Shown here one piece after another: positions 54,001-57,000 of a stretch of DNA of 64,000 bases. The first letter of the stretch is position 1; each line of letters starts with the position of its first letter. Position numbers: made by a program. Origin of the DNA: Acidobacteriota bacterium (GTDB lineage Bacteria > Acidobacteriota > Terriglobia > Acidiferrales > UBA7541); the NCBI GenBank assembly GCA_013289855.1, contig JABCZD010000001.1, positions 445,027-509,026 of the forward strand, written 5' to 3'.

Positions 54001-57000
54001 AGGTCTCGGCTTCGCGGCCTCCGCCGGCGGAAGGTTTTCTGCCGGTGGGTTCGCAGCCGGCACTTCAACGGGCTGTGCGTTCGACGAAACTTTTTCCTGC
54101 AACGTGGCCGTGTCGCCACCAACAGGTTTCCGCCCGCAACTGAAGATTGCAACCGAAAACAGCGCGATAAATATTTTGTATCGTCGAAATCGAGTCAGAA
54201 GGAACTCCTAGAACCAAGAATCGATTAGGTTGCGACGCGTACGGCGACAGTCTTGCGAGAATCGAGCCACATTTCAATCAGCAACGCCACCGGACCGACG
54301 ATGAACAGCGCGTAGAAGGGGGCATAAACAACTTGCTCCAATCGGAGAACAGTTTCGACCAGCGCGACAATCGCCACCACGATGCACTGCCAGCGTGTGG
54401 TGCGCACCGTGGTTTTGGGATCCGTGATCATAAAAAAAATAAAGAGCTGGTACATCGGACCGGTCAACGGAGCGATCTCCGACTGCCAGGGATTGCCGGT
54501 AAGAAAGCTACGCAGGAACGCAAACGCGATGAAGCATGCGACGTACGTCCCGGTAATGTGAAAACGGTGCAAACGCGCGATGGTGATGGACCCAAGAATC
54601 CATACCACAATCATTGGCAGCAGGTAATTGCCCCACTGAATGCTGAGACCAGCTACAGCCGCGGGCGCAAGAAACAGCAGCACGGATATTCCGAAGTTAG
54701 AGGGATTCCAAATGTGCCGGCCTTTCACGCGCAAAACATATTTCGACATGATGGAAATGACGGAACAAAGCAGGTAGGGCCAGAAGGCTGGAGAACGAAC
54801 AAGGATGCCAACGCTGATACCAGTGATGTACGCGCTGGCGATGTTCGGCCACTTACCCGTGAAGATGCGGCCGAGAATCAGCTCGGTGACAATGCTTGCG
54901 ACAATAGCGATGCCGGTCTTTTTGTAACTTTCGAGAATGCCGAACGACAAATGCCCTGCAATCAAAATGCAGGTGATGAACATCGGTGCGATGTAGCGGT
55001 TATCAAGACTGAAAAATCGCTTCCAGTTGAGCGGCTGGGTGGGCTGCGGCGCGGCGACAACGCTCGGTTGGCTCATGCAGGTTCCTTGACGACATGAATC
55101 TCATTGGGTGCCGGCGCGTCGATGGTTTGAATTTTACCAGAAGGCCAGCGAACTACAGCCTTTTCGATCTTCGGAAATTTGCCGAGACCGAAATGCAGTC
55201 GCCGCTGGCTCTGCGCGGCGAAACCGCTGCCACCGGAAACTTCCTGCGATTGCTGCTCGCCGTTCCAGAACACCGTGACCTGCGCGCCGATGGCGCTGCG
55301 ATTGCTCTTCGTTCCTTCGAGCTCAAACTCGATCCACTTGTTCTCCGGCGTGACCGTGTTTTTGTAAATCAGCAAAGGCCCGCGTTCATTGGCCACGATC
55401 ACGTCCAGCACGCCGCGATTCCACAAATCCGCGAAGGCTACCGCGCGCCCGTCGTACGTATCGGTCACGCCCACCGCTTGCGCTACATCAACGAATTTTC
55501 CGCTGCCATCATTCAGCCAGACATGTTTGGTTTGATAGCCGCTCAAGCTGCGACCTTCCATGGCCGGCCAGTTCTTGGCGTCGTTGATGATGGCACTATG
55601 ACCGCCGGCGATCTTGGAAAAGTCGTACCAATAACTTTTGTCGCGGTCCAGCGAAACGTATCCGTTGGTCAGATACAGATCGAGCGTGCCGTCGTTGTTC
55701 AAGTCGCCAAATTGTGCGCCAAAACTCCAGCCGCCGATTTCCACGCCAAAATCGCGCGCCAGATTTTCGTACTGCAGTGTGTCCCCACTGGCGCGTTCCT
55801 TCGGCACCCACAGATTATTTCCCTGAATGAGCACGCCTTCTTCGGAAATATTAGAAACGTAAACGGAGTAGCGGCCCTGATTGAGGATATCGCCAAAGCT
55901 GGCGTTCATTCCGCTCTTGGGAGCGAATCCGACGCCGGCTTGTTCGCCGGCTTCATGGAAGCGCTTGCCATCGTTGACGTAAAGTTCCGAGACGCCGTAA
56001 TCGTTGGCGACGAACAGGTCCGGGTGCCCGGTGCCATGCAGGTCGGCCGCGACGGATGCCAACGCCCAGCGCCGGCTGTTAATGCCAACCTTCTCGCTGA
56101 CCTCTTCAAATTTCCCATTGCCAAGATTGTGAAACAGATATTTGCGGCCGCCATTTTTGGCGTATTCAAAACTATCCGGCATCATTTTGGTGGAAGAAAG
56201 ATGCCAAAGGTCAACGTCCTCCGAGTAATAGCCGCCGATAAACAGATCCAGCAAACCGTCGCCATCGTAATCGAACCACAGCGCGGTGTTGGCATTGATC
56301 CAGGGCGGCAGACCGGCTTGCTCGGTGACACGCGTGAATCCGTGCCCGGCATTGTTGTGAAAAAGTTCCGGCTTGCCCCACTTGATCAACAGAAGATCTT
56401 CGTAGCCGTCGTTGTCATAATCTCCCCAAACGGCGCCCGTGGAAACGCCGGTACCGGCAAGATTGACGTCGGCGACGCCCATCTCTTCGGCGACATCTTT
56501 AAAAGTTCCGTCGTGCATATTGCGGTACAGCGCATTCTTCGCGCCTTCCTTGCTGGTGGTGACGTAAATGTCCGGCCAGCCATCGTGATCGAAATCGACA
56601 ATCGATACGGAGGCGCCCATCGACGCGACCTGTGGCATGATGTGATCCAACCTGGAATCGAGCGTCGGCGCTTGATGGACGAAATTCACTCCCGCGGCGT
56701 GCGAGACTTCTTGCAAATAGAAACCGTGGCGCGCCAATGCGGTCTGAAGATCAAGCTGTGTTTTCGCGCCATCGCGGTGCGCGGTAATGCGTCGCGCAAT
56801 GAGCGGAGAAAATACCAGACCCGCGAAAACCAGTGCCAGAACAATTCTTGCCGTGAGCCCTCGTTTCACTTGGGTGGGGAGCTCCTGAGGGAATTTTGAA
56901 AGACGTCCGGTGTGACGTAGCGGGTGTGGTAGTTCTCCCAATCTTCCGGATGCTGGCGATAGACGTACTCATCTTCCAGCGCCCCGGGGCGTTCCACGTA

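Follow-up and report, generated by a model that had tools for sequence, protein, structure and literature searches.

A conserved, Shine-Dalgarno-preceded CTG as the probable start codon of a CRTAC1-family lipoprotein gene in Acidobacteriota

The 64,000-nucleotide (nt) stretch of DNA analysed here, referred to as the window (positions 445,027 to 509,026 of contig JABCZD010000001.1, assembly GCA_013289855.1, Acidobacteriota bacterium, an uncultured soil organism), carries a CRTAC1-family gene on its minus strand for which it is not obvious where translation begins. The longest open reading frame (ORF) with a canonical start in this frame (52339..54102, 587 amino acids (aa)) opens at a TTG and would give a cytoplasmic protein. 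This TTG is the first canonical in-frame start, and 32 codons upstream of it lies a CTG that has a Shine-Dalgarno (SD) motif before it and that opens a predicted lipoprotein signal. An earlier note on this DNA had left the choice between initiation at the CTG and an ATG lost by substitution or sequencing error. We suggest that this is a functional lipoprotein gene whose translation probably starts at CTG 54198, driven by the AGGAG upstream of it.

The gene and the codons around its start

The gene belongs to the CRTAC1/ASPIC-UnbV family, and both defining domains are present. FG-GAP_3 (PF13517) matches in seven stretches (E=4.5e-52), together with FG-GAP (PF01839, E=5.4e-13), and UnbV_ASPIC (PF07593) matches at the C terminus (residues 521-591, E=1.4e-18). 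The closest solved structure is that of human CRTAC1 (Cartilage acidic protein 1; PDB 9etn_A, E=1.2e-26). The label "enediyne biosynthesis protein E4", carried by orthologs in JGI, is an annotation transfer.

Read on the minus strand, the AGGAG is separated from the CTG by the six bases TTCCTT (54204-54199). The codons after the CTG are ACT CGA TTT CGA CGA TAC AAA ATA TTT ATC GCG CTG TTT TCG GTT GCA ATC TTC AGT TGC, then GGG CGG AAA, so that translation opened at the CTG reads L-TRFRRYKIFIALFSVAIFS-C, then GRK. Between the TAG at 54210 and the TTG at 54102, the CRTAC1 frame contains no ATG, GTG or TTG. The gene upstream, which is read in a different frame, ends with a TAA (54227-54225) 26 nt before the CTG. 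The earlier note had described the TAG, the AGGAG with its 6-nt spacing, CTG 54198, the lipoprotein signal and the position of the first canonical start, and every one of these details was confirmed by the minus-strand reading and the ORF list. Translation table 11 lists CTG, as well as ATT, ATC and ATA, among the starts, and, to our knowledge, experimentally confirmed bacterial starts besides AUG, GUG and UUG are very few.

The arrangement is singular in the window. Only once does a CTG lying 4-10 nt behind an AGGAG open an ORF of 150 codons or more, and this is also the one place where an SD-led near-cognate codon stands tens of codons (32) before the first canonical start with coding-like translation in between. 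ATC 62828, the only other SD-led near-cognate candidate from the scan of the window, was rejected, its upstream translation not being coding-like. The ATG starts at 23490, 31350 and 50311 likewise have AGGAG or GAGGAG 6-7 nt ahead of them, and no SD precedes TTG 54102.

Conservation in seven lineages and the origin of the proposed start

In a protein search, orthologs numbered in the thousands and came without exception from uncultured Acidobacteriota (Terriglobia; 'Candidatus Acidoferrum' and the like), and among the 120 best of these, nearly all untruncated calls have a lipoprotein signal ending in ..[AGS]-C. At the DNA level, we compared the window with its closest relatives, L001 (protein P0001, 93% aa identity), L002 (P0002, 90%) and L003 (P0003, 88%), and with the further relatives L085/L086 (P0005, 83%), L087 (P0004, 83%) and L088/L089 (P0027, 82%). 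The window, L001, L002, L003, L085, L087 and L088 constitute the seven lineages of the CTG clade, which come from independent JGI, ENA and NCBI metagenome assemblies. The L085 type is present on 22 contigs, L093 and L094 are of the same lineage (99.9% nt identity), and L087 is a 1.6-Mb contig found in both ENA and NCBI. The best core identity to the GTDB representatives is 88%, and the window's species is absent among them. The order of genes is common to the relatives: a large FG-GAP/TPR protein, a 598-aa CRTAC1 paralog, a 283-aa membrane protein and the CTG gene. A search with the 68 N-terminal residues only gave no match and hence added no members to the clade. A scan of metagenomes for the pattern AGGAGTTCYTTCTGNNNNGATTTCGA returned only L004 (contig WBZP01010515.1, 5613-5638, minus strand), an exact 26-nt match to the SD-CTG pattern that lies on an unrelated contig and is followed by stop codons; we judged it to be a chance match.

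In the DNA alignments and a codon-by-codon listing, the AGGAG, the 6-nt length of the spacer and the CTG are invariant in all seven lineages. With the CTG as the anchor of the alignment, the block from -11 to +2 has 11 invariant bases out of 14, whereas the flanks have 18 out of 82 (22%). Among the signal-peptide codons, 13 of 60 bases are invariant, and gene-wide the proportion at third codon positions is 23%. The pairwise synonymous divergence (dS) extends from 0.37 (window versus L001) to about 1.4. Taken naively, the eight named bases have a probability of 5e-6, and 11/14 has a P of 9e-4 after Bonferroni correction; these values treat columns as independent, ignore phylogeny and are indicative only. 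On the strength of these alignments, we regard the conserved SD-CTG as a real feature and exclude both a sequencing error and a local change from ATG to CTG. For an assembly error or a mutation private to this genome, nothing speaks beyond the rarity of CTG starts, whereas six further lineages, which stem from different samples and were sequenced at different centres, share the CTG, its SD and the spacing between them, and no lineage has an ATG at the position of the CTG, the ancestral ATG being elsewhere; we consider this explanation refuted and give it practically no weight. Of the two possibilities raised in the earlier note, substitution or error thus falls to the seven independent lineages, and the CTG as initiator is supported by the conserved SD, spacing and codon, by the lack of a canonical alternative in four of the seven lineages, by the conserved signal and by strong purifying selection.

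The four lineages in which no in-frame ATG, GTG or TTG could encode the signal peptide are the window, L001, L087 and L088. In the window and L001, the upstream stop is followed by TCG... and then by the in-frame TAG, whose position is CAG or GAG in the other lineages; in L087 and L088 the sequence reads TGA TTC....

A conserved RNA element was considered as the cause of the invariant block and was rejected: the RNAalifold consensus was weak (-6.3 kcal/mol, with a covariation term of +0.11, that is, no covariation support), and Rfam gave no match. We observed a weak predicted hairpin on the minus strand of the window that would pair AUUCUUG with the SD region UAGGAGU (54211-54224 with 54203-54209). 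Its pairs are mostly G-U and its conservation is partial, and we do not find it convincing.

The signal itself is constant in form. In each of the seven lineages the lipobox Cys stands exactly 20 codons after the CTG, and neither indels nor stops intervene. We applied a lipobox rule of the PROSITE PS51257 type, namely [LIVMFWSTAG]2-[LIVMFYSTAGCQ]-[AGS]-C with the Cys at 15-35, six preceding uncharged residues and K/R within the first seven. All seven CTG models pass this rule with Cys21, the window model having R3, R5 and R6; the model opened at TTG 54102 fails it and contains no signal. Across the seven lineages, the net charge of the n-region is +1 to +4 and the mean Kyte-Doolittle hydropathy of the h-region 2.0-2.7. 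The 20-codon signal has thus kept its length, hydrophobicity, charge and Cys at a proportion of synonymous differences (pS) of about 0.5. The product is therefore predicted to be a lipoprotein, as the sequence rule is satisfied.

These observations also bear on the possibility that the signal is no longer made, with a cytoplasmic product arising from TTG 54102 or further downstream, or with the gene being a young pseudogene. TTG 54102 does open the longest canonical ORF, and the gene callers on relatives also took internal starts. However, this TTG is private to the window, the corresponding codon being CCG in L001 and L002 and CAG in L003; it lacks an SD and sits within the Pro/Ala-rich tether. 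The ratio of nonsynonymous to synonymous substitution (dN/dS) over the whole gene is 0.06-0.10 in every pair, and since this holds even between the window and L001, both of which are devoid of a canonical start, the gene is not a pseudogene. The retention of the signal's properties in seven lineages likewise speaks against this explanation, and truncated calls are a common artefact of gene callers even where a normal ATG is present (L090, L091, see below). We therefore consider it quite improbable. The view of the earlier note that a cytoplasmic TTG product is implausible is borne out, as the TTG is not conserved even in the relative of 93% identity.

The calls on the relatives illustrate how such starts are annotated. 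They begin at an internal TTG (P0001, P0004 and P0027), an internal GTG (P0002), an internal ATG (P0005) or an upstream TTG (P0003), and none of the gene callers chose the CTG on the contigs of the clade. Automatic annotation thus removes the export signal in every clade member examined save P0003, with its upstream TTG. Truncated ortholog calls in the database (MGSGVCF.., VTAQAGIHF..; P0122-P0240) had raised the suspicion that non-canonical starts are widespread, a suspicion that was rejected: L090 (2196-2260) and L091 (2076-2165) encode a normal ATG that overlaps the upstream TGA, followed by a lipoprotein signal. N-terminally truncated calls in this family are a systematic gene-caller artefact at ATGA-coupled starts. 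This should be taken as a warning for annotation. There are at least four kinds of wrong start on the relatives of the CTG clade (internal TTG, GTG and ATG, and upstream TTG), most of which delete the lipoprotein signal, and localisation predictions for this family from metagenome-assembled genomes of Acidobacteriota are unreliable.

The origin of the proposed CTG start can be followed in the outgroups. The eight outgroup orthologs (L005-L011 and L013) start at an ATG in overlap with the upstream gene's TGA (..GC ATGA..). An ATGA stop/start overlap is the classical arrangement for translational coupling; in the window, it joins the second and third genes of the operon, and the first and second are joined by GTGA. 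Where the outgroups have the ATGA overlap, the upstream gene of the window has its TAA. In L006-L009, 31 codons (93 nt) separate the ancestral-type ATG from the Cys codon that follows it. A relic GCATGA is kept in L087 and L088 at 94 nt and in L085 at 100 nt from the Cys codon, with the ATG one base out of frame. The junction has mutated to GCCTGA in L001-L003, and to ACCTAA with a 4-nt deletion relative to L001 in the window. Because the relic ATG lies at 94 or 100 nt and the outgroup ATG at 93 nt, a net change of +1 nt took the ancestral start out of frame in the ancestor of the clade. The comparison places the ancestral ATG about 11 codons upstream of the CTG and not at the CTG position, so that the start codons of the orthologs, whose comparison the earlier note had proposed, are a presumed CTG in all seven clade lineages and an ATG, about 11 codons upstream, in the outgroups. 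In the window's lineage, the DNA between the upstream gene's stop and the SD no longer codes for protein, as an indel that is not a multiple of three and the in-frame TAG show.

The SD may itself be derived from formerly coding sequence. Outgroup L006 reads AAA TTC TTG GCT AGA AGG TTT T (K F L A R R F), and at the matching place the window has ATTCTTGGTTCTAGGAGTTCCTT. This similarity, judged by eye, suggests that the SD for the CTG descends from Arg codons (AGA AGG in the outgroup) of the old n-region.

Weighing initiation at the CTG

Under initiation at the CTG, the 30S subunit would be placed by pairing of the AGGAG with the anti-SD, and the initiator tRNA would read CUG with a first-position mismatch, the start being read as formylmethionine. 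The precursor, MTRFRRYKIFIALFSVAIFS/CGRK..., would be exported and lipidated at Cys21. Historically, the ancestral ATGA-coupled ATG was put out of frame by the net +1 nt, and initiation would have shifted to the CTG 11 codons downstream; in the lineage of the window the relic has decayed fully, through the change of ATGA to CTAA, the 4-nt deletion and the gain of the in-frame TAG. A low yield would be expected, as in E. coli, unless the initiation machinery of the host is more permissive. This expectation follows from the fact that CUG initiates weakly in E. coli and forms less stable complexes there. Ribosomes released at the stop of the upstream gene, 26 nt away, may help initiation at the CTG. 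As cleavage of the signal peptide removes the evidence, N-terminal proteomics cannot settle such a start (PMC13515050).

One further point supports this proposal: in E. coli, CUG belongs to the four near-cognate codons that initiate measurably, at about 1-2% of AUG (bioRxiv 10.1101/063800). Several others weigh against it. CUG is strongly disfavoured in E. coli, with values of 0.02-3% of AUG depending on the construct, and the only natural near-cognate starts confirmed experimentally in this organism are those of infC and pcnB, both AUU (bioRxiv 10.1101/063800). Initiation complexes on CUG are less stable than those on AUG, GUG or UUG (PMC11497404). An SD-preceded CUG in Caulobacter dnaA gives toeprints in vitro and is unused in vivo (PMC8443254). 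Comparative work found switches to CUG in 2 of 61,358 ancestral AUG starts and in 1 of 2,468 UUG starts (PMC5622118). Within the clade, L002, L003 and L085 have a TTG 10 codons before the CTG, immediately behind the upstream gene's in-frame TGA; in these three lineages the CTG need not be the sole start. The CTG codon taken alone is not significantly conserved, since 5 of 18 CTG codons for conserved Leu elsewhere in the gene are also invariant. At this divergence, a neutral site is invariant in roughly a fifth of cases, and selection against an upgrade from CTG to TTG, ATG or GTG is not demonstrable. Finally, the dN/dS of the 20 signal codons is 0.67, which is not lower than the 0.74 of the 10 codons before the CTG. 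As the substitution ratios do not discriminate, the case for translation of the signal rests on its conserved length, frame and composition and on the invariant Cys. We regard the CTG start as probable and put it no higher, because the Caulobacter dnaA CUG shows that sequence context alone does not prove use.

It could also be proposed that translation starts at another near-cognate codon within the signal region (ATA 54174, ATC 54168 or CTG 54162), which would give a shorter signal. ATA stands at codon +8 in five lineages; L085 has ATG there, and its call P0005 begins at that codon. However, codon +8 is GCA in L002, and none of the three candidates is preceded by an SD. The product, MFIALFSVAIFSC, would have its Cys at residue 13, would lack a charged n-region and fails the lipobox rule. 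A start inside the signal would, moreover, leave both the invariant AGGAG-N6-CTG and the conserved basic n-region (RFRR, KF.R) unexplained. We accordingly see little likelihood in it.

Recoding could supply the N-terminus in yet another way: ribosomes might read through from the upstream gene or undergo a programmed frameshift out of an ORF in a different frame, such as one opened by the relic ATG. In L085 (2936-2985), L087 (2924-2975) and L088 (2909-2960), the relic ATG opens an out-of-frame ORF of 13-15 codons that ends 3 nt past the CTG, and a TTTT run, suited to a +1 slip, is present in L085 and L087. These ORFs are homologous to 54195-54227 of the window; L001 and L002 keep the stop without the ATG, and the window has neither. 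The window no longer has the relic ATG (CTAA), its CRTAC1 frame is closed by TAG 54210, and no start feeds the junction. The frame of the upstream gene differs from that of CRTAC1 and has stops at TAA 54227 and TGA 54197. The slippery run is absent from L088 as well as from the window, and neither a conserved RNA structure nor an Rfam match was found. Recoding is thus highly improbable in our estimation.

Initiation at the CTG may be connected with the translation of its neighbours. A further reading, which we consider possible though unlikely, is that selection keeps the CTG as a weak start, which would then be more than a leftover. After the frameshift had removed the ancestral ATGA-coupled ATG, the clade would have fixed an SD-driven CUG start whose use requires ribosomes supplied, through termination-reinitiation, by the upstream gene or by the short relic ORF. 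If this were true, a low output of the lipoprotein would be tied to translation of the upstream membrane protein, and the locus would represent a natural, evolutionarily stable (dS > 1) case of CUG initiation with termination-reinitiation in bacteria.

Neighbouring genes and comparison with known systems

The features of the start region and of the operon are collected in Table 1.

Table 1. Features of the CTG gene and of the genes upstream of it (window positions)
Feature	Position	Strand	Basis or remark
CRTAC1-family lipoprotein gene (FG-GAP_3 x7 + UnbV_ASPIC), CTG-initiated model	52339..54198	-	Translation, Pfam, PDB; 619 codons + stop (52341-52339)
Pro/Ala-rich tether, from lipidated Cys (predicted) to first FG-GAP blade (starts about RPSGPIEF)	54001..54135	-	Translation, alignment
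TTG, first canonical in-frame start; rejected as real start	54100..54102	-	ORF list; without SD; product without signal
Codons 2-21, predicted lipoprotein signal peptide TRFRRYKIFIALFSVAIFS-C	54136..54195	-	n-region charge +4, h-region, lipobox IFSC; Cys codon 54138-54136
CTG, proposed initiation codon	54196..54198	-	Invariant in 7 lineages; always 20 codons before lipobox Cys; sole SD-preceded near-cognate
26-nt intergenic spacer after upstream gene	54199..54224	-	Alignments; non-coding, given the 4-nt deletion versus L001
AGGAG, putative SD sequence, 6 nt upstream of CTG	54205..54209	-	Invariant in 7 lineages amid diverged DNA
In-frame TAG closing the frame 4 codons upstream of CTG; overlaps SD	54208..54210	-	Sequence; common to L001
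Upstream gene, 283-aa polytopic membrane protein, weak NQR2_RnfD_RnfE match	54225..55076	-	Stop TAA 54227-54225
CRTAC1 paralog, 598 aa from GTG 56869	55073..56871	-	ATGA overlap with 283-aa gene, GTGA overlap with upstream 1236-aa ORF
First cluster gene, about 1190-1236-aa FG-GAP_3/UnbV_ASPIC protein	56866..60576	-	TPR matches in relatives

Three proteins with FG-GAP/UnbV_ASPIC domains (about 1236, 598 and 619 aa) make up the operon together with the interspersed 283-aa membrane protein, and the paralog is also called at 598 aa in L002, L003 and L085. Next after the CTG gene are genes for an FAD-dependent halogenase/QhpG-like oxidoreductase (50339-51682) and an alpha/beta hydrolase (49388-50311), in an order that is conserved in relatives. 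Elsewhere in the window, two giant genes on the plus strand encode components of a Tc toxin complex in a host that is apparently an acidobacterium: a 2476-aa TcB/TcC-like Tc (ABC) toxin protein (23490-30920; SpvB, TcdB_toxin_midN/midC, RHS) and a 3694-aa TcA-like protein (32723-43807; VRP1, ABC_toxin_N, Neuraminidase-like, TcA_TcB_BD). Tandem genes for tRNA-Val(TAC) and tRNA-Asp(GTC) lie at 18266-18437 on the same strand.

Compared with the CRTAC1/ASPIC-UnbV family in general, the product has the same domain architecture and is likewise predicted to be extracytoplasmic; it differs in being a predicted bacterial lipoprotein version with a Pro/Ala tether. The arrangement of the gene resembles the ATGA translational coupling seen in the outgroups in that it lies in the same tightly packed operon, with the CTG 26 nt after the upstream stop. 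However, the overlap has been lost in the window, where a 26-nt gap takes its place, and the relic ATG is out of frame or mutated throughout the CTG clade.

A resemblance to the +1 frameshifting of the prfB type can also be seen, with an SD-like AGGAG a few nt upstream of a T-rich stretch and, in some relatives, the nearby end of an out-of-frame upstream ORF. Unlike prfB, the window contains no upstream start in another frame, its stop does not adjoin a slip codon, and no slippery site is conserved.

The closest counterparts are the near-cognate AUU starts of infC and pcnB, with which the CTG shares a single-base difference from AUG, a good SD at optimal spacing, conservation and the lack of a canonical alternative. 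It differs from them in that the codon is CUG and not AUU, in that its use is predicted from sequence, and in that there is no sign of the autoregulation by initiation factor 3 known from infC. The start thus most likely falls into a class that is known, though rare, among bacteria, that of near-cognate start codons, and the surrounding sequence, of about 100 nt, offers a compact natural test sequence for CUG initiation and reinitiation. What would be new with respect to the known members of this class is a CUG start conserved together with its SD across a clade at dS > 1, and with a traceable origin in the loss of an ATGA-coupled ATG by frameshift.

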